A DNA stretch of 32,000 bases, taken from NCBI RefSeq assembly GCF_000025505.1, contig NC_013849.1:1890001-1922000 (forward strand), written 5' to 3'. The notes beneath the pieces were generated by a model. It was not told the origin of the DNA. It worked only from the letters and a program-made list of their open reading frames with translations, and searched no databases. How positions within the stretch are numbered: the stretch's first letter is position 1; every line of letters begins with the position of its first letter. The DNA comes from Ferroglobus placidus DSM 10642 (GTDB lineage Archaea; Halobacteriota; Archaeoglobi; Archaeoglobales; Archaeoglobaceae). Made by a program: the position numbers and the translations under genes. Shown here in pieces: positions 1,658-23,266 of this stretch.

Positions 1658-3523
1658 CTACGTGTCGAGATTTCTCACTTCTGTGGCGTGCTCCATTATG
1701 AACCTCTTCCTGTCTTCGGTGTTCTCTCCCATGAGAATCGAAACTATCTCTTCGGCCATCGCCGCATCTTCGAGTGTTACCTGAATAAGTATCCTTCTCT
1801 TCGGATCCATCGTCGTCTCCCAGAGCTGTTCAGGGTTCATCTCTCCCAGACCTTTGTACCTCTGAACTTCCGCATCTCCTATTCTTTTAAGCAGGTTTTC
1901 GAGTTCTTTGTCTGAGTAAAGGTAGTAAACTTTCTTCCCCTTCTTAACTCTGTAGAGGGGCGGCTGGGCTATGTAAAGGTATCCGTTCTCTATAAGCGGA
2001 CGCATGTAGCGGTAGAAGAAGGTTAGCAGCAGAGTTCTTATGTGAGCTCCATCTATGTCCGCGTCGGTCATTATGATGATTCGCCTGTACCTCGCCTTTT
2101 TTATGTCGAAATCCTTTCCGAAACCGGCACCTATGGCAGCTATAATCGCTTTTATTTCGTCGTTTTTCAAAACTCTAACCATACCAGCCTTCTCTACGTT
2201 TATAATCTTACCTCTTATCGGCAAAATTGCCTGAAATCTTCTGTCTCTTGCCTGTTTTGCCGAACCTCCGGCAGATTCACCCTCAACTATGAACAGCTCC
2301 CTCTCTTCAGGATTTTTCGACGAGCAATCGGCAAGCTTCCCCGGAAGAGTTGCCACTTCTTCTCTCCTCTTTATAACGTCCCTCGCCCTTTTCGCAGCCT
2401 CTCTCGCTTTAGCAGCTAATATGCACTTCTCTATTATTTTGTTAGCCTGCTCAGGATGCTCTTCAAACCACCTCATCAATTCGCTGTAAACTATGGTCTC
2501 CACAGCCGTCTTAACTTCGCTGTTACTCAGCTTGGTCTTCGTCTGCCCCTCAAACTGTGGTTCCGGAACCTTAACTGAAATTACGGCTGTCAAACCTTCT
2601 CTGACGTCCACCCCGGTTATCGGCTTGAAGTTCTTGACGTTCTTCTTTCCGTATTCGTTTATCGCTCTCGTTAGAGCCGCTCTGAATCCTACAACGTGAG
2701 TGCCTCCCTCAACGTTGTGTATGTTGTTGGCATAAGCGAGAATAGTTTCGAAGTCGGTGTTCGTGTACTGCAGAGCTACTTCGACGCTAATTCCGTTTCT
2801 CTCTCCACTTATGTATATTACATCGGAAATCTTTTCTCTGTTGGCGTTGAGATGCTCCACGAACTCCACAATTCCCCTTTCTGAGTAGAACTCCTCCTTT
2901 TTCCCGCTTCTTTCATCGTACAGCTCAAGCTTCAGTCCCTTGTTCAAGTATGCGAGTTCTCTAAGTCTGTGCGCCACTATGTCGTAGCGGAACTCCGTCG
3001 TTTCGAAAATCTCCTCGTCTGGCTTGAACCTCACGTAAGTTCCCGTCTCGTTTGTCTCTCCGATAATCTCAAGAGGTGTCACCGGAACTCCTCTCTCGTA
3101 TCTCTGCCTGTATATCTTTCCGTTTCTCTTAACAATAACTTCCACCCACTCGGAAAGAGCATTAACGACGGATAAACCAACTCCGTGCAAACCTCCAGAG
3201 ACTTTGTACGCTTTTTTGCTGAACTTTCCTCCCGCGTGAAGCTTCGTCATCACTATTTCCAAAGCTGGCTTTCCGAGGGGGTGCATTTCGGTCGGAATTC
3301 CTCTTCCGTCATCTTCGACGCTCGCACTTCCATCCCTATGTAAAACTACTCTTATTCTGCTGCAGTATCCCGCTAAATGCTCGTCAACGCTGTTGTCGAT
3401 AACTTCCCACAAAAGGTGATGAAGCCCTCTAATTCCAACTCCACCAATGTACATCCCCGGTCTCTTTCTCACAGCTTCCAAATCGCTAAGAACTTCGATT
3501 TGCTCAGCCGTGTACTCTTCCAC
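1658..3523 (-). CDS. gyrB: DNA gyrase subunit B
   Basis: 621 aa with a GTG start. GHKL ATPase motifs LEAVRKRPGMYIGG, LWEVIDNSVDE and GGLHGVG. Toprim motifs ELFIVEGESAGGSAKQARDR and IMTDADIDGAHI. C-terminal QRYKGLGEMNP. Confidence 0.95.
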   Translation of the reverse strand: MEEYTAEQIEVLSDLEAVRKRPGMYIGGVGIRGLHHLLWEVIDNSVDEHLAGYCSRIRVVLHRDGSASVEDDGRGIPTEMHPLGKPALEIVMTKLHAGGKFSKKAYKVSGGLHGVGLSVVNALSEWVEVIVKRNGKIYRQRYERGVPVTPLEIIGETNETGTYVRFKPDEEIFETTEFRYDIVAHRLRELAYLNKGLKLELYDERSGKKEEFYSERGIVEFVEHLNANREKISDVIYISGERNGISVEVALQYTNTDFETILAYANNIHNVEGGTHVVGFRAALTRAINEYGKKNVKNFKPITGVDVREGLTAVISVKVPEPQFEGQTKTKLSNSEVKTAVETIVYSELMRWFEEHPEQANKIIEKCILAAKAREAAKRARDVIKRREEVATLPGKLADCSSKNPEERELFIVEGESAGGSAKQARDRRFQAILPIRGKIINVEKAGMVRVLKNDEIKAIIAAIGAGFGKDFDIKKARYRRIIIMTDADIDGAHIRTLLLTFFYRYMRPLIENGYLYIAQPPLYRVKKGKKVYYLYSDKELENLLKRIGDAEVQRYKGLGEMNPEQLWETTMDPKRRILIQVTLEDAAMAEEIVSILMGENTEDRKRFIMEHATEVRNLDT

Positions 3524-3780: not shown

Positions 3781-3931
3781 AGCAGGATATTTAGCTTTGC
3801 TCTTTGGTAATGATGCCCAGAAATTCAGCATTTTTCAAAAGATACTGGCTGAAACTTGTTTTAACACACCGATATTTAAACTACGTTTTGGTCCACAACG
3901 ATATTTACATCTACCAAGTAGAAACACAAAA

Positions 3932-3940
3932 TTTTATATA
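3932..3940 (+). promoter_or_regulatory. TATA-box-like element for the hsdM operon
   Basis: TTTTATATA centred about 30 nt upstream of the GTG at 3966, which would give a leaderless or near-leaderless transcript. It lies in a 440-nt AT-rich intergenic region shared with divergent gyrB. Confidence 0.3.
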
Positions 3941-3965
3941 CCAAATTGGAAGTACTTTTTTATAG

Positions 3966-5720
3966 GTGATACCCGTGTGGGATCAACTTTCTGACGTTGA
4001 AAATTGGGTGAAACAAAGATATATAGTTCTCGCTAAGGAATTCGGAAACAAGCCCTTTAGATTAGAAGACGCTGAAAAGGTTTTGAAAAAAGCGGGAATA
4101 GAAACCGGGAACGTGAAGGAATTACTTTCGATTCTGAGAAAAAAGGGTTTGCTTGAGGTTGAAAAAGACCCTGAAGATTTTAGAAGAAGCATCTACAGGT
4201 TGCTTTTTGTTGAAAAATCCGTGAGTCCTACGAGAGACAAGCTCTTCAGAAGCCTCAAAGCCGGAGCCGATCTGATAAGAGGAGGTGTTGATTACAAAGT
4301 GCTCTTGCTGTTCCTCTTCTACAAGGCTTTGAGCGATAAGTGGAATGCTCTCGTGGAAAGCTTCGTATCAGAAGGACACACAAAAACACAGGCTTATCTG
4401 CTTGCCAACAGAAAATACTATGTGCTTTACGACGAGAATGAGCAGAAGCTCCTGACTTGGCACGAAGTTACGAAGAAGAGAGAGACGCTCACAGAACTTG
4501 CGAACGCCTTAACGAGAATATCGAGATTGAATGAAAAGCTTTCAGACCTTGAGAAGCTCGTCGAGATTCTAGGATTCAAGGGATTCATAAGCGAAGATAA
4601 TCTTCACACTATCGAGAGCATAATCCAGATTTTCAACACCCTCGATTTCTCGAAGCTGCCCTATGACGTTATAGGAGATGCATATATGTGGATTCTGAAT
4701 TACTTCGCTCCACAGAAGGCGAAGGAAGGAGAAAACTACACTCCGATAGAAATAGTGAAGCTCGTTGTCAACTTGTTGGACATAGAGGTCGATGAAGAGA
4801 GTGGGGTTGTTACCGTTCTCGATCCAGCTTTAGGCTCCGGAAGTATGCTCATAGTTTCGAGAGATTACGTTAGAGAGAAGTACGGGAAGGAAGGGGAAGA
4901 TGTTCTCATGCTTTACGGTCAGGAAAGAAACGAGATAATGGGTGTTATAGCAAAAATGAACCTGATTCTTCACGACATAAAGAATTACGAGATTTTTATT
5001 GGAGACAGTTTAGCCAATCCGAGATTTCCGCAGTGCGATTACGTCGTCGCTAATCCGCCCTGGAACCAGGATTACAACGTGAACGGGCTTATAGAAGATC
5101 CAAAGGTTAAGAAAATTTACACGCAGTTCACGAGCACTTTGCCACCCAAAAACTCGATGGACTGGGGCTGGATACAGCTCATGCTTTACTTTGCAAGGAA
5201 AAAAGTTGGTATAATTCTCGACAACGGAGCTTTGTTCAGAGGAGGGAGTGAAAAGAGGATTAGAGAGGCTATTGTTAGGAGAGATTTGATCGAAGCCGTT
5301 GTTCTGCTTCCGGAGAAGCTCTTCTACAACACGGGAGCACCGGGATGCGTTATTATTTTCAACAAGAACAAGCCTGAAGAGAGGAAAGGTAAAATCCTGT
5401 TCATCAACGCAAGCAACGAGTACGAGAAGCATCCAGAAGTTAGAAGGTTGAACAGACTCGGAGAGAAAAATATCGAGAAGATCGTGGATGCTTACCGAGA
5501 ATTTAAGGATATCAAGGGTTTTGCGAGAGTTGTCAGCATTGAAGAGATTGCGAAGAACGATTACAATCTAAACGTTACGCTCTACGTAACTCCAATCGTA
5601 GAAGAAGAGGAGATCGACGTTGTCGAAGAGTGGCGAGAACTCGAGAAGATAGAAGCTGAGAGAGATGAGATAAAAGCCAAGCTCAGCGAATACGTTTCCG
5701 AAATAATGAGGGTTTGGTGA
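3966..5720 (+). CDS. hsdM: type I restriction-modification system, N6-adenine DNA methyltransferase subunit M, with N-terminal wHTH-like extension
   Basis: 584 aa. SAM-binding motif [13 protein letters not shown] and catalytic motif [11 protein letters not shown]. HsdM N-domain-like [24 protein letters not shown]. The GTG start at 3966 is uncertain (alternative GTG at 3975). Confidence 0.9.
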
Positions 5721-5905
5721 TGAGTATGGGAAAGGTTGTGGAAGCTATTTACGAGAAGGGGGTGCTGAAACCTCTCGAAAAGTTAGACTTAAAGGAGGGT
5801 GAGAGGGTCAAGATAGAAATCAGAAGGAGCGTTTTCGGAATCTTGAAGGACTGGAAAGTAGACTCTCAGAAGCTTAAGGATAAGTTTAGACAAACTGGAG
5901 GATGA
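5720..5905 (+). CDS. DUF104 (AF2212-like) putative antitoxin family protein
   Basis: [34 protein letters not shown] is the hallmark N-terminus of the archaeal DUF104 family. The ATG at 5720 overlaps the hsdM TGA by 1 nt (TGATG); alternative starts are 5714, 5717 and 5726. Its last codons GGAGGATGA supply the SD for the next gene. Confidence 0.7.
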
Positions 5906-5909
5906 TATC

Positions 5910-8258
5910 ATGATGTTGAACATATTTGAGGTAGATAAAAATCGAGTAGAGGTGCCACAGGACGTATACCTCTACAAGGTTCATCTAAAAACGCTGGAGC
6001 AGAGAAAAAGAGACATGTGTATAGCTGTCTTAAGAAATAGTTTTGGGTATCTTGACGTAAACAGTTTTGTTATATACTCGTACAAAGAGATTAGGGATCT
6101 GCCACGAAGAATTAAAAAATACTGCGACTTAGAACCTACAGGAAAGGTAAAAATGAATGAAGTTGACGAAAACGTTAGGAATGCATTGGTTAAAACTTTT
6201 CTTAGATCGAAGATAAGAAAGGATATTAAAAAACTCTTAAAAAAATTTAAAAAATTTCAACAAAGTGTTGGGCGATGGACAGTCGCATTGGACTTAGAGA
6301 GAATAGAGTTAGTGGAGCATAATGGAGAAATCCTCGTTTCTTTTAATGTCAAATTAAATATTAGTTCAATGATAAATTTATGGGATATAATTGAAAGAGA
6401 TGTTAACAGGCTAAAAGGACTCTGCTGGAGTCCAGAAAACCTAAACGACAATAGAATTTGGTTTAGGTACATTCCTCATTTGATTATAGAAGAAGTTGAG
6501 GATTTCGAGGAGAGTGCAAAATCTTTCATTCTTAGCGATGTTCATACTGGAGAAGAGTTTGGAGGTTGGACTACTGAAGATCTAAAGAAATATCCAGAAA
6601 ATGAGTATGGCTTATCAGAGGATGCCATTAAGAAAATTGGGAATTATACGCAATTCGATAGCACCCAACCGATTATTAAAGGTGTAACTTGGAGTGGTAA
6701 GGAGTATCCCTTTTTACCTCAGCATTGCATCCCAGCTTACAATCCAATGTTAGCAACAGCTGAGGAGAAAAAAAGAATAGAAGAAATTAAAATCAATTTA
6801 AAAAATAAAAAAGATGAAATTATTAGAAAAATAATTGAACAGCTACCGTACCTAAAACAACCTGATAACATTGAGATTAAAAAAGTGCAAGAGACAGCCA
6901 GATTAAGAGCAAAATTTGTTAAAGTTGAGGTAACTAAAGGTAAAATTACTAAAACTCTTTCTCAGCCGTACGAAAAACCAGTGTCGAGTACTTTGGATTT
7001 GTTTGGCTGGATTTCAAGAATTATAGATGGAGGAGATGGAATTATAGAGATTTGCATTCCAGATTACATACCAGAAAATCTTTCAAGAATTAAAGAGATC
7101 GAAGCATTCTTGCTAATTGAAAATGATTTGAACGAAAATGAAAGAAAAGTAGGCGACAAATTATTAAATGACGCAATATATGTTTATAACTTCGTTAGAA
7201 GCGTTTGCCTCAGGTGTGGTATAAATATACCTTACTTAAATTATAAAGGTAACCGATTCTACTTTGAAAATAGCAAAGAGGGTATCAGAGATATATACAA
7301 AAGGATAACCACCTCCCTTAGCGGTGAGATAGGTTTTGCTCTTATATTTGGAAAGAGAGATAATTATGAAGACGAAGAGGGCGAAGATTCTTTTGACTAC
7401 TACAATCCCCTAAAATCTGCTTTATTTAGAAACAACATATTAAGTCAAAATTTTGATGTCACGAATTATGTAAGAGGCGACGGCAAAATTAATAAGAACA
7501 CGATTAAATATGCTGTATCAAATATAATTTATAATATTTTTGGGAAGTTGGGAGTAAAATTCTTCGTTCTTGAAGAGGATGTTCCATACGACTACATACT
7601 TGGTATTGATGTAGGGTATGGCGAAGCTTACACAGGTAAAGTAGCTGGATGCACAACAGTGCACGACTCGGAGGGCAGACTAAGAAACTTAATTCCTATA
7701 GAAAAACAGAACTATCCCTCCAAGGAGACTGCAAGAATTAAAGCCTTACTAGAAGAAATTGAACAGAAAAAGAAAATTTACAACATAGATTTTGAGAACA
7801 AAAGTATACTAATCTTGAGAGACGGTCGCATTAATAAAGAAGAAATAAACCAACTGATGGAGTTTTCTGAAGAAAGAAATTGCAGGATAACGTATATCGA
7901 AATCAGGAAAAACATTGTGCATCAATTCTTAGTGAATAGCTCACAAGCGTGTTATGTCAAGATTGGCGATTATTACATCTTGAAAGCTCATAATCCTAGA
8001 ATAGGATTTCCCAGAGCAATAAAGATTGCAAGAAAGATCGTAATTGAGGGCGATGCGTGGAGAGAGTCATCACTAACGGAGGACGACATCTTACTGATTT
8101 ACAAACTTACAGCCCTGAATTATTCTACAATCGGCAGAGATAGCAATCTTAGAATACCGGCTCCAATTTACTACGCTGATAAACTTGTAAAAGCCCTTAA
8201 AAAAGGGTGGAAATTCGATGAGAGGTTCTTGAGGTATGGAATTCTATACTTCTTGTAG
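5910..8258 (+). CDS. long prokaryotic Argonaute (PIWI-domain protein), D-E-D-D catalytic residues apparently intact
   Basis: 782 aa. MID pocket Y498-x3-K502...Q513...K546 (DYYNPLK, LSQNF, FGKLGVKFFVL). PIWI motifs YILGIDVGY (D567), PSKET (E606), ILILRDGR (D638) and RIPAPIYYADKLV (D757, aligned with H807 of the human AGO2 string PAPAYYAH). PAZ/L2-like string YPFLPQHCIPAY. A GGAGGA SD lies 7 nt upstream of the ATG. Confidence 0.85.
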   Translation: MMLNIFEVDKNRVEVPQDVYLYKVHLKTLEQRKRDMCIAVLRNSFGYLDVNSFVIYSYKEIRDLPRRIKKYCDLEPTGKVKMNEVDENVRNALVKTFLRSKIRKDIKKLLKKFKKFQQSVGRWTVALDLERIELVEHNGEILVSFNVKLNISSMINLWDIIERDVNRLKGLCWSPENLNDNRIWFRYIPHLIIEEVEDFEESAKSFILSDVHTGEEFGGWTTEDLKKYPENEYGLSEDAIKKIGNYTQFDSTQPIIKGVTWSGKEYPFLPQHCIPAYNPMLATAEEKKRIEEIKINLKNKKDEIIRKIIEQLPYLKQPDNIEIKKVQETARLRAKFVKVEVTKGKITKTLSQPYEKPVSSTLDLFGWISRIIDGGDGIIEICIPDYIPENLSRIKEIEAFLLIENDLNENERKVGDKLLNDAIYVYNFVRSVCLRCGINIPYLNYKGNRFYFENSKEGIRDIYKRITTSLSGEIGFALIFGKRDNYEDEEGEDSFDYYNPLKSALFRNNILSQNFDVTNYVRGDGKINKNTIKYAVSNIIYNIFGKLGVKFFVLEEDVPYDYILGIDVGYGEAYTGKVAGCTTVHDSEGRLRNLIPIEKQNYPSKETARIKALLEEIEQKKKIYNIDFENKSILILRDGRINKEEINQLMEFSEERNCRITYIEIRKNIVHQFLVNSSQACYVKIGDYYILKAHNPRIGFPRAIKIARKIVIEGDAWRESSLTEDDILLIYKLTALNYSTIGRDSNLRIPAPIYYADKLVKALKKGWKFDERFLRYGILYFL

Positions 8259-8267
8259 TTGAGGCTC

Positions 8268-8585
8268 ATGAAGGTCGAAAAGATCGTTGAGGAATTCGCT
8301 CGGGAACTGAGGAAGAAACACGAAGACAAAGTAGAGGCTATAATCTTCTTCGGTTCTCATGCGAGGAGTGAAGGAAGGGAGGAGAGCGACATCGACGTTT
8401 TAATCATTGGAGACTTAAAGCTCGACGAAGCTGTAGATGTCGCTTATCCGATTTTTCTGAAGTACGGAGTTTACATTTCCCCGATCGTGATGAATAGAGA
8501 GCACTTCGAGACGTTAAAAGCTGAAAGGACCGGATTCATCGAGAACGTTTTGAAGGAAGGGGTATTTTTGTATGGCGGAGTATGA
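8268..8585 (+). CDS. minimal nucleotidyltransferase (MNT), antitoxin-type partner of HEPN
   Basis: FFGSHARSEGREESDIDVLII is the GSxxR...DxD Pol-beta-type NTase signature. The protein is small (105 aa from the ATG at 8268; alternative TTG at 8259, immediately after the Ago stop). The 3' end overlaps the HEPN gene by 14 nt. Confidence 0.85.
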   Translation: MKVEKIVEEFARELRKKHEDKVEAIIFFGSHARSEGREESDIDVLIIGDLKLDEAVDVAYPIFLKYGVYISPIVMNREHFETLKAERTGFIENVLKEGVFLYGGV

Positions 8586-8973
8586 GAAATACCTCGAAAG
8601 GGCTTACGAAGCCCTCGAATCCGCTAAGATTTTGTTTGAGAACGAGAAGTACAACGCTTCGATAAGTCAAGCTTATTACGCAATGTTTTACGCATCGAAA
8701 GCCCTTCTGAGCCTTAAGAGAATATATCCAAGAACTCACAGGGGAGTAGTTTCCGAATTGGGTTTGAGATTTGTGAATGAGGGCTATATCGAAGAGCTTT
8801 ACGGCAAAATCTTGGCTAAGGGCTTGCAGTTGAGGGAGAGGGTGGATTACGACGTTTATTACAGAGCATCAAAGGAGGAGGCTGAGGAGATGATAAACGA
8901 GGCTGAGATGTTCGTAGAGAGGATAAGGAGGGCGATAGAGGAGATTTTGAAGAGAGGTGAGGGGAATGATTGA
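8572..8973 (+). CDS. HEPN domain protein (PF05168-type), toxin-type partner of MNT
   Basis: 133 aa. Helix pair AYEALESAKILFENEKYNASISQAYYAMFYASKALL, then RIYPRTHRGV and LRERVDYDVYY. Classic MNT-then-HEPN gene order with overlapping reading frames. Confidence 0.85.
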   Translation: MAEYEKYLERAYEALESAKILFENEKYNASISQAYYAMFYASKALLSLKRIYPRTHRGVVSELGLRFVNEGYIEELYGKILAKGLQLRERVDYDVYYRASKEEAEEMINEAEMFVERIRRAIEEILKRGEGND

Positions 8974-9298
8974 CGTGATGTTTGTTCCGATCTTTCTTTT
9001 TCAGTTCGTCTTTTGGTTGTTTCTGAACCTAACGAGAATCGGACAAGCAATCTTAGCAATTTGGGGTAGTTTGACTTTGATGGGGTTCATTGTAAACGTA
9101 TTTTATCCCGCATATCTTCAAACGATTCATCTTGGAACGTCTGGGAATTTCTTGATGGCGACCGATTTAATTGTTGAATTCGTGAAAGATTCGGTTTTGT
9201 TTTTGGTTAATTTAGTCATTCCACCTTGGTTGGGGTTGCTCGTTGGATTATTTTCGACTCATGCACAGAGAGGTGAGAAATATGATCTCGTCTGCTAA
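8966..9298 (+). CDS. small integral membrane protein (about 3 TM segments), unknown function
   Basis: It fills the otherwise 300-nt gap between HEPN and hsdS. The ATG at 8966 overlaps the HEPN stop (ATGATTGA) and is preceded by GAGGTGAGGGG. Hydrophobic stretches: VMFVPIFLFQFVFWLFLNL, GQAILAIWGSLTLMGFIVNVF and VLFLVNLVIPPWLGLLVGLF. The 3' end overlaps the hsdS start by 17 nt. Confidence 0.55.
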   Translation: MIDVMFVPIFLFQFVFWLFLNLTRIGQAILAIWGSLTLMGFIVNVFYPAYLQTIHLGTSGNFLMATDLIVEFVKDSVLFLVNLVIPPWLGLLVGLFSTHAQRGEKYDLVC

Positions 9299-10547
9299 GC
9301 TTCAATTCTACAAGGAGGAGAGGCTTGTATTTAACAAAGAACTCGGTTGCGAGATTCCTGAGGATTGGGGAGTTGTTAAGCTTGGAAAGGTTGTTGAAGT
9401 CTGGGATAAGTATAGAATTCCAGTTAAAGAGCAAGATAGAAAGCCAGGACCATATCCTTACTGCGGAGCTAATGGTATAATTGATTACGTTGATGGTTAT
9501 ACACATGACGGAGAATTTGTTCTCCTTGCCGAGGATGGAGGTTATTTTGGACCTTTTGAAAAGAGTGCATACATAATGCGAGGAAAATTCTGGGCAAATA
9601 ACCACGTGCACATTTTGAAAGCTATAGCAAATAAAATGACGAGCGAATTCTTGATGTTTTACTTAAACTTCATGGATTTAAGGCCTTTCTTGACTGGCTC
9701 CACTCGACCCAAATTGACACAAACTGATATGTTGAGAATTCCTTTACCAAAACCTTCACTTCCAGAACAAAAAGCAATCGCAGAAATCCTCTCAACAGTC
9801 GATAGAGCCATCGAAAAAACCGATGAAATCATCGCCAAAGTTGAACGCTTAAAGAAGGGCTTGATGCAGGAGCTTCTCGCTGGCAGGGTTAGAGTTAAAG
9901 TTGAGAACGGGAAGATCAGATTTTACAGAGAGACGAGATTTAAGGATAGCGAGATCGGGAAAGTGCCAGAGGATTGGGAGGTTGTTAAGCTTGGGAAAGT
10001 TGCCGAGCAAAGGAAAGAAATTGTTGACCCTACCGAAGTTGATCCCGTAACCCCATATGTTGGCCTAGAACACGTAAACTCGGGAGAAACGAAATTAAGT
10101 AACTTCGGAAAAGCAGAGGAAGTCGTTAGTTCAAAATATAGGTTTTACATTAGAGATATCCTTTACGGAAAATTAAGACCATATCTCGACAAAGCTGTAA
10201 TTTCTAATATTAACGGAGTCTGTTCTACTGATTTTATCGTCATGAGAACTAAAAGAGACTACACAATACCTGATTTCTTGATTTATGTGCTACATACAAA
10301 GAGATTCATCGATTATTCTACTGCTGGTATGACTGGAACAAATCATCCTCGAACATCTTGGAATTGGATAGCTAAGTTTGAATTTCCGCTCCCACCACTC
10401 CAAGAACAAAAAGCAATAGCAGAAATCCTTTCAACTCTCGACAAAAAACTCGAACTTGAAAAGAAAGAGAAGGAAAGACTTGAGAGAATAAAGAAGGGGC
10501 TAATGAATGTTTTGCTGACTGGAAGAGTGAGGGTGAAAGTTGGATGA
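9282..10547 (+). CDS. hsdS: type I restriction-modification system, specificity subunit S (two target-recognition domains)
   Basis: Duplicated architecture: IPEDWGVVKLGKVVEV / VPEDWEVVKLGKVAEQ at the start of each half. Duplicated conserved helices LPEQKAIAEILSTVDRAIEK...LKKGLMQELLAGRVRVKV / LQEQKAIAEILSTLDKKLEL...IKKGLMNVLLTGRVRVKV. The ATG at 9282 is preceded by GAGGTGA (the track ORF starts at a TTG at 9243). Confidence 0.9.
   Translation: MISSAKLQFYKEERLVFNKELGCEIPEDWGVVKLGKVVEVWDKYRIPVKEQDRKPGPYPYCGANGIIDYVDGYTHDGEFVLLAEDGGYFGPFEKSAYIMRGKFWANNHVHILKAIANKMTSEFLMFYLNFMDLRPFLTGSTRPKLTQTDMLRIPLPKPSLPEQKAIAEILSTVDRAIEKTDEIIAKVERLKKGLMQELLAGRVRVKVENGKIRFYRETRFKDSEIGKVPEDWEVVKLGKVAEQRKEIVDPTEVDPVTPYVGLEHVNSGETKLSNFGKAEEVVSSKYRFYIRDILYGKLRPYLDKAVISNINGVCSTDFIVMRTKRDYTIPDFLIYVLHTKRFIDYSTAGMTGTNHPRTSWNWIAKFEFPLPPLQEQKAIAEILSTLDKKLELEKKEKERLERIKKGLMNVLLTGRVRVKVG
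9762..9796 (+). repeat. hsdS internal direct repeat, copy 1 (central conserved region)
   Basis: ccagaacaaaaagcaatcgcagaaatcctctcaac matches 10401-10435 at 32 of 35 positions by hand alignment. Confidence 0.85.
10401..10435 (+). repeat. hsdS internal direct repeat, copy 2 (distal conserved region)
   Basis: caagaacaaaaagcaatagcagaaatcctttcaac; see copy 1. A second repeat pair lies at 9357-9393 and 9966-10002 (32 of 37 identical). Confidence 0.85.
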
Positions 10548-11467
10548 ATTTAGACAACATAGAACAAATTTTAGAATCTCCTGAAAAGTTAGACTCTTTA
10601 TTAAAATTACTTATGTCTTTGGAGCGAATTTTAGAATCTCAAGATGAACAGAGATATTTAGAAGCTAAAAGGTTTGTTGAGTCGGCAAATGAAGATTTAA
10701 AGGCTTCACAAATCCTTTACAATGCAGGTTTATACTCATCAGCGGTCTTTCACATGCAACAAGCTACTGAAAAATACTTTAAAGCAATAGCAATTTACTA
10801 TTTTGGACTTTCAAAGAAAAACATTAGGAAATACGTGAAACACGATACACCTAAGATTGCAATTTTATTTTTAAGAAAGTATCAAAATATAGTTAAAGAT
10901 TTAACTATGTTTTTCAAAGATATTGTCCCCGAGAAATACTTAGCAGATACTTCGAGAGAATACATCCTCAATCTTGAAAGATTGATAAATACAAATAAAC
11001 GAGACATTGCCCAATTGAATAAAGAAGAAATATATAAGCTAATTAAGTTAACTAGATCGCTTGTCGAAAGCTTAGAGAGTGATGACACTAAGAATAAAAT
11101 TCTTAATACTCTTCAGGATTTAAATAACAATAAAAGTAAGATAGTTAATAAAATTCTAGAGGTATTAAACCTCTCCCAAATTAGTGAATCTAAGCTTGAC
11201 CAAATTAAGAAACAAATCATAAAGGCACTCGATGTTTCCTTTACTGAAGCTCCTCACAATGTAGAAATTGCTCTAAAACTTGCATCTTCGATATGTATGT
11301 TATTCTTTCTGGGAATAATAACGTACCCGCATGCTACTTTTACGCGATACAGACAAAAATCAGCCCCTCAATATGATATAGGGCTTGGAATAGTGGATTC
11401 TTTCAGAGACTTACTTGAATTGCTACAGTTGGCATCTGATAATATAAATAACCTGTTTAATATATAA
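10544..11467 (+). CDS. HEPN-like domain protein with a large helical insertion, embedded between hsdS and hsdR
   Basis: 307 aa. ANEDLKASQILYNAGLYSSAVFHMQQATEKYFKAI is a textbook HEPN alpha1-alpha2 hairpin, followed by RKYVKHD (R95-x4-H100, nt 10826-10843). The C-terminal YPHATFTRYRQ...YD resembles the closing ..RY.. helix. About 140 K/N/L/I-rich residues lie in between. The ATG overlaps the hsdS TGA (ATGA). Confidence 0.6.
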   Translation: MNLDNIEQILESPEKLDSLLKLLMSLERILESQDEQRYLEAKRFVESANEDLKASQILYNAGLYSSAVFHMQQATEKYFKAIAIYYFGLSKKNIRKYVKHDTPKIAILFLRKYQNIVKDLTMFFKDIVPEKYLADTSREYILNLERLINTNKRDIAQLNKEEIYKLIKLTRSLVESLESDDTKNKILNTLQDLNNNKSKIVNKILEVLNLSQISESKLDQIKKQIIKALDVSFTEAPHNVEIALKLASSICMLFFLGIITYPHATFTRYRQKSAPQYDIGLGIVDSFRDLLELLQLASDNINNLFNI

Positions 11468-11487
11468 GATCGTAGAGGTGTAGCATT

Positions 11488-14400
11488 ATGCCCCTCCAAT
11501 CGGAGGATGTCGTTCACGAAGAAATCAAGAGAAATCTCATCGAAATCGGCTGGAAAGATGGAAATACCGAGCTGAAAATACCTGAACACGCGCTGATCGA
11601 AAGTTATTACCTGCCAGACGTTCTTGAAAAGAAAATCCTCGAAATTAACGAGGAGGAGTTTTCGAGGGTTGAAGAAGACGAGGAAAGAGAGGTGTTTGCA
11701 AAAATCTTTGAAGAGCTGAACGCGAGGGAAGAAAGAATTCTCGACTATCTTAAATACGGGGTCAAAGTTAAAGTTGGAAAAGAAATCAAAATTTTTCGCC
11801 TGATAGATCACGAGAAGCCTAAGAGGAATTACTTTTTCTTCCTTCACGAAGCCAAGTTTAAAGGCTCTCCAGACAACAGCAAGCCAGATTTCACGCTCTT
11901 CATAAACGGAATACCCGTGGTTATAATCGAGGCTAAGTCGGAGTCAATTCCTTACTCACACAAAACAGCTTTGGAAGACATAAGAAGCTACGAAATGCGA
12001 TCTCCCGATCTCTTCCGATTCGTTCAGTTTGCAATCGCTTACGGAGATGAGAAACGCTACACTCCAACGCTCCCAAACTGGGAGAGAAAACAAACTCAAA
12101 GCTTCTCGTTTAACTGGAAAGACGATATTTTCGATCTCCTGAATCCGGAAAGGCTCGTGGAATTCATTCGATACTTCGTTTTCTTCTGGAGTCCCGAAGA
12201 AGGTGTCAAAAAGAAGCTCGTTGCGAGATACAATCAGTACAGAGCGACGAAAAAAGCTATGAGAAGAATCGAAGAGCACATGAACGATGAAAAGAACCGC
12301 GGACTGATATGGCACTGGCAGGGGAGTGGCAAAACCTTCACGATGTTCTTCATAGCCAACTACTTTCTCGACAAATACTATTCGCAAAATCCCGTTGTGT
12401 TCTTTGTAGTTGACAGGCAAGACTTAGAGAGGCAGCACGACGAAGTTCTAAAGTCCGTTCACGAAGAAAAATTCAGGAGTCTTTACAAGAAAATTGAAAG
12501 CATCCCCGAGCTTTGCAAAATAATCGAAACTCTGAAGGAGAGCGAGTTCTCGAAAAACATAATTCCTCGCGGTGTATACTTAACCACGATTCAGAAATTC
12601 CAGAGAGGTCAAACGGACGTCGAAGGCTTGAGCGAGAAAGAAGATCGGGAAGCTTCGCAGAGAATATACTCGCTATTGCTCAAGCTCGCAGAAAGGTATC
12701 TGAAGCACCTTGAAAAAACTAATCCGGAGGAATACAGAAAAGTTATGAACAAACTCTCTTCTCTTAAAGGAAAGGATAGGGTGAAATACCTCCTCGAACT
12801 TGGTGGCGTAAAAAGTAAATCTGTGCTCTTCCTGATAGACGAAGCTCACAGAAGTCATTACAGCACTCTCGGAGCGATGAGGAAAGCAAGCTTTCCGAAC
12901 TGCGTGACTTTAGGCTTTACAGGAACGCCTATTTTCAAATACGAGAGAAACACCTTCGTCGAGTTTTCTTATCCAGACGAGAAGGAGTATTACCTTGACG
13001 TTTACTTCATCGAAGAGTCAATAAAGGACGGATTCACTCTTCCGCTCGCCTACGAGGTTGTTAAAGAAGGTGACGTGAAAGCTGAAGGAATTCAGATAAG
13101 GTTAACCGAGAAGGAGATAGCGGACTTCATAAAAGAATACATGAAAAAGCGCGGAAAGATAGAGGAGCTCCTTGAGGCGAAAATAACCAAGAAGGAAATT
13201 CGCGATAACATAACGAAGGCTAAGGTCATCTTGCTCAATCCTGAAAGGATAGACAAACTCGCCAAGTACATCGTTGATAGAATCGAAGAAGACACGGAGA
13301 ATTTCAAGTTCAAAGCGATGGTCGTAGCCGTTAACAGGCTCGGATGCGTGAGATACAAGAGAGCTCTGGACAAATATCTCGTGGAAAAATTTGGAGAGGA
13401 GGCAAGAAGCTGGAGCGAAATAGTGATGACCTACAACTACAAAGAGACTGAAAGGGAAATCCTCGAATACATGGAAGAGCTCAGAGAAAGAAGAGGAAAC
13501 AAGGACTACAACGAAATAAACAAAGAAATACAGGACGAGTTCAAAAACAAAGAAGATCCGAGAATTTTAATAGTTACGGACATGCTACTAACAGGTTTCG
13601 ATGCTCCCAGACTTAGAGTCATGTATCTGGACAAACCGCTTTACGAACACAGACTTCTACAGGCTATAGCCAGGGTTAACAGACCTTACGAGGACAAGGA
13701 ATACGGGTTGATCGTTGATTCTGTAGGACTCATGGAACACCTCACCAAAACCATGGCAATTTACAACCTCCTAGCTGATGAAAATAGCGAGATCAAGCGA
13801 GATCTTGAGCTTAATCTAATGAAGTCGATAGAGCAGAAGTTCTCCGAATTCGAATTGAAGTTTAACAGTTTGAAAGAAGAGCTGAAAACGCTTAAAGTGG
13901 CTGGCGAAGATGTCGGAATTGACATCGATGCCGTAAAGAAAGCTTTGAAAACCGGTGAAGGCAAGGAAGAAGTACTGAGCAAGATAAAAATGTTTGCGAT
14001 GCTTTATACGGAAAGCGAAGAGTTCTCAACCAAGCTCGTTAGGATTGTAAACGAAATGAGAGGAATTTTGAGGTTATACAAAGCTCTGGGAGCTTACACT
14101 CAAAAAATAGTTTACGTTGAAGATGTTCAAGCTCTTGCGTACATCTACTACAGACTCAGATCTATAATATCCCCGAAGACCGCAAGACTCGGAAAAGAAT
14201 TCTGGGATGAGCTGAGATCGTACATTTACGAAAGAACTGTGGTTGAGGAGTTTAGGGAAGTAGGAAGGACAAAACTCGAACCAGAAAAAATAGATAAACT
14301 GGTTTCGGAGTTTGCCGAAAAATTTGGTGAAGACGAGCTAAGGAGGAAAATCGTCAATCAGCTTGCCGATTATTTCTTCTACATCAGAAACTTTGTAAAA

Positions 14401-14526
14401 GACAAAGTTCACGATCCCGTCTACAGACAAATAGCTGAAAAAATCGAAAGGTTGAGGATAGAATGGATATTAAGAGCTGTTAATACAAAGACGTTTCTCG
14501 CTAAACTCAAGGCAATCGAAGACTAA
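11488..14526 (+). CDS. hsdR: type I restriction enzyme, R subunit (nuclease + SF2 helicase), ends at an in-frame TAA
   Basis: 1012 aa. PD-(D/E)xK-like KPDFTLFINGIPVVIIEAKSE. Helicase motif I WHWQGSGKTF, motif II FLIDEAHRSHY, motif III GFTGTPI and motif VI QAIARVNRPY. A GAGGTG SD lies in the 20-nt gap after the preceding gene. Confidence 0.9.
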   Translation: MPLQSEDVVHEEIKRNLIEIGWKDGNTELKIPEHALIESYYLPDVLEKKILEINEEEFSRVEEDEEREVFAKIFEELNAREERILDYLKYGVKVKVGKEIKIFRLIDHEKPKRNYFFFLHEAKFKGSPDNSKPDFTLFINGIPVVIIEAKSESIPYSHKTALEDIRSYEMRSPDLFRFVQFAIAYGDEKRYTPTLPNWERKQTQSFSFNWKDDIFDLLNPERLVEFIRYFVFFWSPEEGVKKKLVARYNQYRATKKAMRRIEEHMNDEKNRGLIWHWQGSGKTFTMFFIANYFLDKYYSQNPVVFFVVDRQDLERQHDEVLKSVHEEKFRSLYKKIESIPELCKIIETLKESEFSKNIIPRGVYLTTIQKFQRGQTDVEGLSEKEDREASQRIYSLLLKLAERYLKHLEKTNPEEYRKVMNKLSSLKGKDRVKYLLELGGVKSKSVLFLIDEAHRSHYSTLGAMRKASFPNCVTLGFTGTPIFKYERNTFVEFSYPDEKEYYLDVYFIEESIKDGFTLPLAYEVVKEGDVKAEGIQIRLTEKEIADFIKEYMKKRGKIEELLEAKITKKEIRDNITKAKVILLNPERIDKLAKYIVDRIEEDTENFKFKAMVVAVNRLGCVRYKRALDKYLVEKFGEEARSWSEIVMTYNYKETEREILEYMEELRERRGNKDYNEINKEIQDEFKNKEDPRILIVTDMLLTGFDAPRLRVMYLDKPLYEHRLLQAIARVNRPYEDKEYGLIVDSVGLMEHLTKTMAIYNLLADENSEIKRDLELNLMKSIEQKFSEFELKFNSLKEELKTLKVAGEDVGIDIDAVKKALKTGEGKEEVLSKIKMFAMLYTESEEFSTKLVRIVNEMRGILRLYKALGAYTQKIVYVEDVQALAYIYYRLRSIISPKTARLGKEFWDELRSYIYERTVVEEFREVGRTKLEPEKIDKLVSEFAEKFGEDELRRKIVNQLADYFFYIRNFVKDKVHDPVYRQIAEKIERLRIEWILRAVNTKTFLAKLKAIED

Positions 14527-14586
14527 ATAGAGGAGTATAAAAATAAGACCGAAGGAAAACCGCTCGAAGAAAGGCTAAAAGAGAGT

Positions 14587-14832
14587 ATGAGTTACTACGT
14601 GAAACAAAAAGCTGGTAAGGAAGCTGACTTTTCGAATACAAAGAAATATCTCAAAAACCTCGTTTCGAGGAAAACGAAAATACTTCCGAAACAGGAGAGC
14701 GAACTCAAAACCAGAATTCTGGAAGATTTGTTCCTGGCGGGGGTGGAGGAAAAGGAAGCTGTAAAGCTAACAGACGAACTCGCGGAGTACATCAAAGAGG
14801 AGATGGATAGATTATGGAGCGAAAGGAGGTAA
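14587..14832 (+). CDS. 81-aa ORF in the same frame as hsdR; probable detached C-terminal tail of HsdR
   Basis: Frame 1, the same as hsdR. Only the TAA at 14524-14526 separates them, and codons 14527-14586 contain no further stop. The string QESELKTRILEDLFLAGVEEKEAVKLTDELAEYI resembles the extreme C-terminus of full-length HsdR proteins as I recall it. Confidence 0.4.
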   Translation: MSYYVKQKAGKEADFSNTKKYLKNLVSRKTKILPKQESELKTRILEDLFLAGVEEKEAVKLTDELAEYIKEEMDRLWSERR

Positions 14833-15107
14833 TAAAGCTCTTCAAAGAGATAGTTAAAGAACTAGGCTTGGAAGGAATTAGAATCAGGATCGTTCCTATG
14901 AAAAGGAAGATCGCGTCTTTCTCTTTCAAAACAAAAACCCTTAGAGTGAACCGAAGAGTTACCGAGCTTTTAGATTATGAACTCGTAAGATATATAATTC
15001 TTCATGAGCTCGTACATTTTAAAATAAACGATGCGAATCACGGAAAAAGATTTTTGAAGAATTTGGGAAATATTACACCGAAAAAGATGCGAAAAAAATC
15101 GAAATAA
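14814..15107 (+). CDS. minimal HExxH metallopeptidase-like protein (DUF45/YgjP-like core)
   Basis: 97 aa. TLRVNRRVTELLDYELVRYIILHELVHFKINDANHGKRFLKNL matches the ..l.fn.rL......i.yVv.HEL.H....nHs..Fw core of DUF45 proteins. These proteins are recurrently encoded next to type I hsdR genes. Confidence 0.6.
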   Translation: MERKEVIKLFKEIVKELGLEGIRIRIVPMKRKIASFSFKTKTLRVNRRVTELLDYELVRYIILHELVHFKINDANHGKRFLKNLGNITPKKMRKKSK

Positions 15108-15327
15108 AACTAATTCAGAAATTGATTTCTGCCCAGATTCTTGAAATTATTTCGGTTCCTCAATCCCCTGACGAAGGTGATTGTAATACAACCTGAACAA
15201 CTTACAAAACAAATTCCAGTTTCTAACGGGATTTTTAGCTGTTATCGAACAGAAAAACAGTTTAATTCTCTGCCTGAAAGAAGAAAACACAGATTCAATT
15301 AATCGTCCTCGTTAACTAACCAAAAAG

Positions 15328-15337: not shown

Positions 15338-15377
15338 CTTGAAACGACGCTTTGGAATCTGCAAAGGTGGGGTGTAT

Positions 15378-22298: not shown

Positions 22299-23266
22299 TC
22301 CTCCCCTCCTCTAACAGTCTTTATGTACTCTCTGAAAGTCTCCTTAAGCTCTTTAATAGCTTCTTTGATCTCCTTCATCGCCTCTCTCAGCGTTTCCTTG
22401 CTCTCCTGCATTTTTTCTATAGCCTCCTTCCTCTCCTCAGCGAATATTGCTTCTTCGAGGTACTGCTTTGCCATCTGCACTTTTTCTTCAGCTCTGTTTA
22501 GAGCTTCCAGATACTCCTCATACGCCTCTTCAAGCTTTGTTGTGTCGTAACCAGACTCGTTCAGCTTTTCAATCTTAGCTCTTATTACCTCAGCCTTCTC
22601 TTTAGCCTTCTCTATAGCGTTCGACATCTTCTCCGCTGCGATAGCCCAGGCGATTAGGTACGTGGAAGTCTTAACTTTTCTCCAATCCTCTCTGAACTCC
22701 TTCATTTTTTCTCTTAATTCTGTCAAGTTCGTCGTTTTATTAATCTCCTCTTTCCAAGCTTCGAGCAGAGCTTTTTCCTCTTCTATCTTCGTGAGGAGAG
22801 CCTCGGTGAGATTTGCGGAAAGGTTAAGCTCCTGCACTCTGATTTCCAACCTCTCCAAATGAGCGATCGCCACGTCAATTCCGTTCGTTACGTGGAGCTT
22901 GGCCATCTCCAAAGCCAATGTTTCGTTGATCATTCCTTTTCTCTTCAATTCCCTCAATTTTTCCCTGTATTCGTGATACTTCTTGTAGGCGTTTTCCTCC
23001 TTCTCTCTAAGCTCCTTCATTCTCTCTTTCCACTCTTTCATCTTCTCTTTTCTCTCTTCCATCATCTCCTTGATTCTCTCTCTCATTTCCTCTCTAACTT
23101 CTTTTCTGTGCTCTTTCATGTACTTCATTTCATCGCTATCGTTCATTCCCATACCCATATGTTCTGGAGAACCCATGTGTCTCTCTTCCTCTTCATATGC
23201 CACCGCTGCTGCTGGCATCAGCAACAGCAACACCAAAGCCAGACTCAACCACCTCATAGCCATCAC
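22295..23266 (-). CDS. secreted K/E-rich coiled-coil protein with an N-terminal His/Met-rich segment
   Basis: 323 aa. Signal peptide MMAMRWLSLALVLLLLMPAAAVA, then EEEERHMGSPEHMGMGMNDSDEMKYMKEH, then long heptad-like E/K/R/M repeats. Confidence 0.6.
   Translation of the reverse strand: MMAMRWLSLALVLLLLMPAAAVAYEEEERHMGSPEHMGMGMNDSDEMKYMKEHRKEVREEMRERIKEMMEERKEKMKEWKERMKELREKEENAYKKYHEYREKLRELKRKGMINETLALEMAKLHVTNGIDVAIAHLERLEIRVQELNLSANLTEALLTKIEEEKALLEAWKEEINKTTNLTELREKMKEFREDWRKVKTSTYLIAWAIAAEKMSNAIEKAKEKAEVIRAKIEKLNESGYDTTKLEEAYEEYLEALNRAEEKVQMAKQYLEEAIFAEERKEAIEKMQESKETLREAMKEIKEAIKELKETFREYIKTVRGGEE

Follow-up and report, generated by a model that had tools for sequence, protein, structure and literature searches.

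Does an Argonaute that is encoded inside a restriction operon work with the restriction enzyme, or is its gene merely lodged there? This question is raised by a stretch of 32,000 nucleotides (nt) from Ferroglobus placidus DSM 10642, called the window here, in which all positions are counted from the first letter. The open reading frame (ORF) at 5910-8258 on the plus strand (stop codon included) encodes a prokaryotic Argonaute (pAgo) of the long-A type, with 782 amino acids (aa) and a predicted mass of 91.5 kDa. We find that this gene, fpAgo, lies inside a type I restriction-modification (R-M) operon, co-directional with its neighbours and tightly packed among them, and that the same arrangement recurs in its close relatives. 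The protein and its enzymology are already known, and only the genomic context has been little described.

The ORF proved to be real, starting with ATG-ATG (MMLNIFEV) and ending in ..LYFL. An exact-sequence look-up returned a single database cluster (WP_012966655.1 / ADC66317.1 / UniRef100_D3S0S6), identical to the translation at 782 of 782 residues and labelled 'stem cell self-renewal protein Piwi domain protein', Ferroglobus placidus DSM 10642. Since WP_012966655.1 is the accession cited in the data-availability statement for FpAgo (Guo et al., 2021, Front Microbiol 12:654345, PMC8248672), the ORF corresponds to the published FpAgo, whose genomic context is absent from that paper. The predicted mass also fits the 94-kDa tagged recombinant protein used there. 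We are therefore all but certain that the ORF is fpAgo, encoding the long, active N-PAZ-MID-PIWI Argonaute of this archaeon.

The gene lies in an island of ~10.6 kb (3966-14526), with gyrB (1658-3523, minus strand) on one side and housekeeping genes, which begin at 15339, on the other. All genes of the island are on the plus strand, and they overlap or are separated by gaps of a few bases. The first gene of the operon is hsdM, encoding the type I R-M methyltransferase (3966-5720; Pfam N6_Mtase, E = 9e-99; PADLOC MTase_I, E = 1.4e-78). Downstream of fpAgo are hsdS, encoding the type I specificity subunit (9243-10547; Pfam Methylase_S, E = 7.7e-51; PADLOC Specificity_I, E = 1.5e-63), the true start of which is probably the ATG at ~9282, and hsdR, encoding the restriction subunit (11488-14526; Pfam HSDR_N, SWI2_SNF2, ResIII and T1R_D3; PADLOC REase_I, E = 2e-77). 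The Argonaute gene thus shares the strand of hsdM, hsdS and hsdR, between which it is placed with operon-like spacing. The gene that precedes it stops 4 nt short of its ATG, a GGAGG is present 7 nt 5' of the ATG, and the next gene starts at the base directly after its stop codon. A TATA-like TTTATATA (~3933-3940), read by eye, precedes the hsdM start by ~26-33 nt, and fpAgo is probably co-transcribed with the surrounding R-M genes. A scan of the operon with bacterial promoter and terminator models, which are not meaningful for an archaeon, detected no terminators above the level of shuffled sequence.

The product of hsdR combines a superfamily 2 (SF2) translocase, with SWI2/SNF2, ResIII and Helicase_C domains, and a nuclease, and the gene starts 3230 nt after the fpAgo stop codon. 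A putative DNA helicase within 5 kb of fpAgo was said to be absent (Guo et al., 2021). This statement overlooks hsdR, an SF2 translocase gene that belongs to the same operon, 3.2 kb downstream.

We asked how widely this nesting is shared. Lineages were collected from contigs of the closest relatives and from family-alignment scans of genome and metagenome collections, and the genes adjoining each pAgo were read by tblastn with the window proteins and by ORF reading (loci are designated by L-numbers). The FpAgo subclade comprised ten distinct lineages with pAgos 42-76% identical, and the distant comparison set contained ~12 distinct informative lineages, MjAgo-like and others, at no more than 38% identity. 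Nesting in the order hsdM-pAgo-hsdS(-hsdR) on one strand was observed in nine of the ten subclade lineages and in none of the ~12 distant ones (Fisher's exact p = 2e-5, for lineages that are not phylogenetically independent). One distant lineage (L017/L039) does contain a type I R-M system, but on the opposite strand, and a Methanocaldococcus locus (L013) differs from that of fpAgo in having no R-M genes within 10 kb.

The genes that accompany the pAgo vary. With M, S and R standing for hsdM, hsdS and hsdR, the order in the window is M-AF2212-Ago-MNT-HEPN-S-HEPN-R, and that in L001/2 is M-AF2212-MNT-Ago-66aa-PIN-S-R, where 66aa denotes an ORF of that length. L003/4/5/20 read M-Ago-S-88aa-220aa-R, with hsdM sharing 4 nt with pAgo in L003, and L006/7/8 read M-Ago-S-M48 peptidase-69aa-R. 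Two loci run into the end of a contig, after M-Ago-AF2212 in L010 and after M-153aa-101aa-Ago in L011; Ago-S was read in L012 and Ago-PIN-S in L029. The order M-Ago-AF2212-PIN-S-R in L032/33 is decayed throughout. On these two metagenome contigs (Ga0190369, L032 1650-3252; Ga0190303, L033 168-1098) a large part is missing from within the pAgo, which shows in both samples an identical frameshift directly after the catalytic GVDV motif, and hsdM, hsdS and hsdR are fragmentary as well.

The exception is L009, from an Archaeoglobaceae metagenome-assembled genome, in which a pAgo of the subclade is found outside any R-M operon and R-M genes are absent. It is preceded by a gene for a 642-aa protein (867-2795) in which a phospholipase D (PLD)-type HKD motif and the P-loop GTTGSGKS were read by eye. 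Downstream of this pAgo, on the opposite strand, is a Cys-rich 158-aa ORF (5809-6285), which, again read by eye, might encode a Cas4/RecB-type nuclease.

Comparison of the window with individual relatives gave discordant identities for the pAgo and the R-M genes. Protein identity between the window and L006-8 was 86% for hsdM and 82-85% for hsdR, but just 47% for pAgo and 40% for hsdS. The order was inverted for L001, where pAgo was 68% identical, hsdM 49% and hsdR 38%. At the DNA level, the window and L006 were 80% identical over 3887-5681 and 76% identical over 11477-15123, with homology broken between. As judged from these alignments, the block between 5681 and 11477 was exchanged between the window and L006, each version carrying a pAgo of the same subclade, and the R-M and pAgo partners were shuffled while the position of the pAgo was kept. 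The GC content of fpAgo (0.35 over 6001-8000) is lower than that of the flanking hsdM and hsdR (0.42-0.44). We did not rely on this as a mark of recent horizontal transfer, since relatives show a similar dip: in L001 and L006 the pAgo is also below the R-M genes beside it, with a smaller difference in L003. Low GC may characterise this gene family rather than indicate recent transfer.

Is the nested protein equipped as an active Argonaute? The original prediction, made from the letters of the DNA, had placed a D-E-D-D catalytic tetrad and a Y-K-Q-K pocket for the guide's 5' end in this ORF, and all of the strings, residue numbers and codon coordinates that it quoted were reproduced exactly by script. 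The tetrad codons are GAT for D567 (7608-7610), GAG for E606 (7725-7727), GAC for D638 (7821-7823) and GAT for D757 (8178-8180); the pocket residues are Y498 (7401-7403), K502, Q513 and K546; and GKEYPFLPQHCIPAY represents residues 263-277. Equivalent residues of MjAgo were obtained by counting in the printed phmmer alignment, as we found no paper that gives the pocket residues of MjAgo. The tetrad aligned with MjAgo D504/E541/D570/D688 and the pocket with Y442/K446/Q457/K483. When 20 full-length relatives (23-68% identity) were aligned, D567, E606, D638, Q513 and K546 proved invariant, and conservation of Y498, K502 and D757 was at least 90%; conservation extended to the FLPQxCxP region (Q253, P254) and, at the C-terminus, to G777, Y780 and F781. 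The C-terminus ..GILYFL agreed with ..GFLYFI/V in the alignments with chains of the PDB. FpAgo therefore carries the RNase H-type D-E-D-D/H tetrad of long-A pAgos (the PfAgo/MjAgo clade) and, at the level of residues, a Y-K-Q-K 5'-phosphate pocket, as indicated by presence, conservation, alignment with MjAgo and the matching C-terminus. By homology, the 5'-phosphate of the guide would be held in the MID domain by Y498, K502, Q513, K546 and the C-terminal carboxylate, and its 3' end in the PAZ domain, with the tetrad working in a PIWI active site of the RNase H type.

Searches with the protein placed it among full-length Argonautes. FpAgo matched Pfam Piwi over residues 496-768 (E = 1.3e-20) and the PADLOC pAgo model (E = 2.3e-144). 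In phmmer searches against PDB chains, the matches were MjAgo (5G5S/5G5T, E = 2.8e-60), PfAgo (1U04/8JPX, E = 7e-52; FpAgo 3-782 against PfAgo 7-770) and 8JSI (E = 1.2e-48), whose sister entry 8WD8 is TtdAgo, with weak matches to TtAgo and KmAgo that were confined to PIWI. When 1.84 billion cluster representatives were scanned with HMMER, only 70 relatives were returned at E <= 1e-3, 31 of them at E <= 1e-30, and the clade is therefore small. An AlphaFold2 model built with the 20-sequence alignment had a mean predicted local distance difference test (pLDDT) score of 85.5 and a predicted template modelling (pTM) score of 0.84. Foldseek comparison of this model with the PDB placed TtdAgo, PfAgo and MjAgo at the top (E = 1e-50 to 1e-54, TM 0.66-0.79, ~800 columns), followed by CpAgo, AaAgo, CbAgo, KmAgo, TtAgo, and PIWI-clade and human Argonautes. 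The alignment with PfAgo over 3-782 and the matches of the model confirm a predicted N-L1-PAZ-L2-MID-PIWI architecture, that is, a full-length N-PAZ-MID-PIWI protein.

Domain limits are approximate, having been carried over from PfAgo through the phmmer alignment; the PfAgo limits are reportedly those given by Song and co-workers in 2004. The N-terminal domain with the stalk/L1 spans residues ~1-151 (5910-6362; pLDDT ~90), and the PAZ domain residues ~152-280 (6363-6749), with the FLPQHCIPAY motif at its end and a fall of pLDDT to 64-77 at residues 170-210. An extra loop in the PAZ domain of FpAgo was seen in modelling by Guo et al. (2021). The L2/interdomain connector follows at residues ~281-375 (6750-7034). 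Alignment and conservation place the MID domain, with the four pocket residues, at ~376-553 (7035-7568), and the Pfam match and conservation place the PIWI domain, with the tetrad and the ..LYFL end, at ~554-782 (7569-8255).

The activity of the identical protein has been described in detail by Guo et al. (2021). FpAgo uses 5'-phosphorylated single-stranded DNA guides only, and 5'-OH guides and RNA guides are not used; it cleaves complementary DNA but no RNA targets, and the cut falls between target positions 10 and 11, numbered from the 5' terminus of its guide. It is active at 75-99 °C and requires a divalent metal (Mn2+ > Mg2+ > Co2+ > Ni2+), with an optimal guide length of 15-16 nt and a preference for 5'-dG. 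Mismatches in the seed are tolerated, and those at guide positions 11-15 are not. Without a guide, plasmid is nicked at 75-85 °C, and a pair of guides allows pUC19 to be linearised. Activity was abolished in the D567A and D638A mutants and severely curtailed in E606A and D757A (Guo et al., 2021), so that the D567-E606-D638-D757 tetrad is required for full activity.

These data, together with the alignments, bear out what had been claimed for the ORF. The tetrad is upheld both by the acidic residues at the MjAgo positions and by the published mutants of the same four residues, including E606, which had been regarded as the least certain assignment and is correct, being invariant in the relatives and sensitive to replacement by alanine. 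The pocket is consistent with the strict requirement for a 5'-phosphate. The claim of a guide-dependent, full-length nuclease holds, as does its distinction from the short, inactive type known from A. fulgidus, since the N and PAZ regions align with PfAgo and the tetrad is intact. Alignment with PfAgo and MjAgo and prediction of the structure, both suggested as checks, gave a full-length alignment with acidic tetrad positions and a full-length Argonaute fold closest to TtdAgo, PfAgo and MjAgo, and the proposed assays (5'-P and 5'-OH guides, DNA and RNA guides, high temperature, D567A and D638A) had already been published (Guo et al., 2021).

We also considered whether FpAgo could be an inactive or RNA-directed Argonaute, either a short or long-B scaffold or a eukaryotic-like RNA-guided RNA slicer. 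The generic Piwi-domain annotation in the database is all that speaks for this. The tetrad is intact and conserved, the fold is full-length rather than MID-PIWI only, alanine mutants lose activity, and RNA guides and RNA targets are unused (Guo et al., 2021). The published assays rule such a protein out, and we give it a negligible probability.

By analogy with PfAgo, TtAgo and CbAgo, and from its genomic context, FpAgo would defend the cell against invading DNA by DNA interference. No observation speaks against the enzymology. On the role in the cell, genetics of F. placidus, in vivo guide sequencing and infection assays were not found in the literature searched. AlphaFold2 run with the five closest sequences was uninformative (pLDDT 52, pTM 0.33), and was then repeated with 20. 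Even in the better model, pLDDT was below 50 at residues 570-579 and 600-606, which include the loop bearing the glutamate finger E606. Low model confidence is usual for this mobile 'glutamate finger' loop.

Comparison with characterised Argonautes indicated what is shared and what is particular to FpAgo. MjAgo, the best sequence match among solved structures, shares the DEDD tetrad, the Y-K-Q-K pocket and the ..LYF[IL] C-terminus, and both proteins are DNA-guided DNA endonucleases (Foldseek TM 0.66-0.76). FpAgo is ~70 residues longer, mostly in the N-terminal/PAZ/L2 part, over which phmmer aligns the two weakly, and, unlike MjAgo, favours 15-16 nt guides and 5'-dG (Guo et al., 2021). PfAgo and TtdAgo are the closest folds (TMt up to 0.79), and all are hyperthermophilic 5'-P DNA-guided DNases, but identity to FpAgo is just ~22-29%, and the additional PAZ loop of FpAgo is a difference from both (Guo et al., 2021). 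PfAgo also differs in having a DEDH tetrad (H745, in PAPVHYAH) and F at the position of Y498. The short pAgo of Archaeoglobus fulgidus (AfAgo/AfPiwi) comes from the Archaeoglobaceae too, but unlike FpAgo it is without N and PAZ domains and a catalytic tetrad. AfAgo shares the MID-PIWI core with a 5'-end pocket of the Y-K-Q-K type. It was not retrieved with the FpAgo query by phmmer against PDB chains at E <= 1.

Small genes of toxin-antitoxin (TA) type flank fpAgo in the island. Between hsdM and fpAgo is a gene for a 63-aa AF2212-like antitoxin-type protein (5714-5905; Pfam PF01954, E = 1.8e-19), which overlaps the hsdM stop codon. This gene is an orphan, and relatives hold varied AF2212/MNT/PIN combinations in the same slots. 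Immediately after fpAgo, a minimal nucleotidyltransferase (MNT; 8259-8585; Pfam NTP_transf_2, E = 2.4e-10; PADLOC PDC-S09, E = 6.8e-21, with a further match to the candidate PDC-M05A) and an overlapping HEPN protein (8572-8973; Pfam HEPN, E = 1.1e-19) form an MNT-HEPN TA-type pair. The ~300-nt gap from this HEPN gene to the probable hsdS start contains a very hydrophobic 113-aa ORF (8957-9298) without a Pfam or PADLOC match, which may encode a small membrane protein or be spurious. A 307-aa HEPN-domain protein is encoded between hsdS and hsdR (10544-11467; GC 0.31; Pfam HEPN, E = 3.4e-10); it has a weak AbiV-type HEPN match and no PADLOC match, and its location inside a type I R-M operon is like that of the HEPN anticodon nuclease PrrC in EcoprrI. 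Downstream of hsdR, a short HExxH protein of 97 aa (14814-15107; ILHELVHF) looks truncated, and is homologous by position to a YgjP-like/SprT-like gene that follows hsdR in L006 and L001. Scans of the window gave no tRNA and no Rfam match. A weak 21-nt tandem repeat (23012-23068; 2.7 copies, 80% matches) inside a minus-strand ORF is unrelated to fpAgo.

How, then, should the nesting be understood? That pAgo genes are statistically associated with R-M, abortive infection (Abi) and TA genes was shown by Makarova et al. (2009), and the orthogroups that neighbour pAgos include HsdS (og_11) and an S-adenosylmethionine (SAM)-methyltransferase (og_13) (Ryazansky et al., 2018). Type I R-M, BREX, DISARM and Hma operons often carry embedded defence genes, 96.7% of them co-oriented, and PrrC occurs almost only as an embedded gene of type I R-M (Payne et al., 2024). 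None of the literature that we searched names a pAgo as R-M-embedded or describes nesting specific to a subclade, and mentions are at the level of catalogues. The fpAgo locus is a new instance of this known embedding phenomenon, comparable to PrrC in the EcoprrI type Ic operon, where a defence gene is also nested co-directionally in type I R-M. PrrC is a HEPN RNase kept in check by the R-M complex, and we know of no dependence of that kind for FpAgo. We consider it probable that nesting is passive, with the variable stretch from hsdM to hsdR serving as a recombination hotspot that gathers defence cargo, and the pAgo functioning independently of R-M. The pAgo, TA pairs, HEPN proteins and M48 peptidase would then all be cargo, and the pAgo would gain only co-regulation and co-transfer. 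This is in keeping with the frequency of embedded genes in type I R-M, of which PrrC is the classic case (Payne et al., 2024), with cargo near the pAgo that differs in every lineage, with the swap of the middle block between otherwise orthologous R-M backbones, and with the match of MNT to the PADLOC candidates PDC-S09 and PDC-M05A. It also accords with the presence of HsdS and SAM-methyltransferase among the known neighbour orthogroups and with an association of pAgo and R-M that is general and has been known since 2009. A pure hotspot, however, accounts less readily for one pAgo subclade residing almost exclusively at R-M operons, and for two exchanged cargo blocks that both contain a pAgo of that subclade.

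Another reading, which we hold to be unlikely, makes FpAgo a functionally integrated part of the type I R-M system and not a mere neighbour. Restriction by HsdR would in that case mark non-self DNA and yield ends or fragments as a source of 5'-P guides, or else double-stranded DNA would be opened for FpAgo by the HsdR translocase. The Argonaute would provide a second, sequence-specific wave of interference at DNA classed as foreign by R-M. Nesting in nine of ten subclade lineages and none of ~12 distant ones favours such coupling, as do the abutting or overlapping genes of the simplest loci (hsdM and pAgo by 4 nt in L003), the position of the pAgo, maintained despite shuffled partners (L006-8, L001), the homology between window and L006 DNA that stops at 5681 and restarts at 11477, and the joint decay of pAgo and R-M genes in L032/L033. 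Two precedents also count in its favour: CbAgo acquires guides with a bias towards double-strand-break ends that RecBCD has processed, and the acquisition of CRISPR spacers is stimulated by restriction cleavage. On the other hand, the same slots are filled by varying TA-type genes, the subclade member L009 is outside an R-M operon, and the lineages are few, phylogenetically related and mostly represented by short metagenomic contigs. In vitro, purified FpAgo works on its own when given synthetic guides (Guo et al., 2021). Nesting alone is no proof of coupling, because defence genes of unrelated kinds are known to dock generally in type I R-M operons (Payne et al., 2024).

FpAgo is already in use as a thermostable programmable DNase, and the nested subclade gives it a further interest. 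How DNA-guided pAgos choose foreign DNA as a source of guides is a general question, for which this subclade would be a natural test system, suited to asking whether restriction feeds Argonaute. One proposal, which we consider unlikely, is that the FpAgo subclade, archaeal and thermophile, is a dedicated partner of type I R-M. Its conserved hsdM-pAgo-hsdS-hsdR operon would link restriction with the acquisition of guides, with DNA cut or translocated by HsdR as the guide source, or with HsdR unwinding the targets. If true, coupling to R-M would provide the Argonaute with discrimination between self and non-self.

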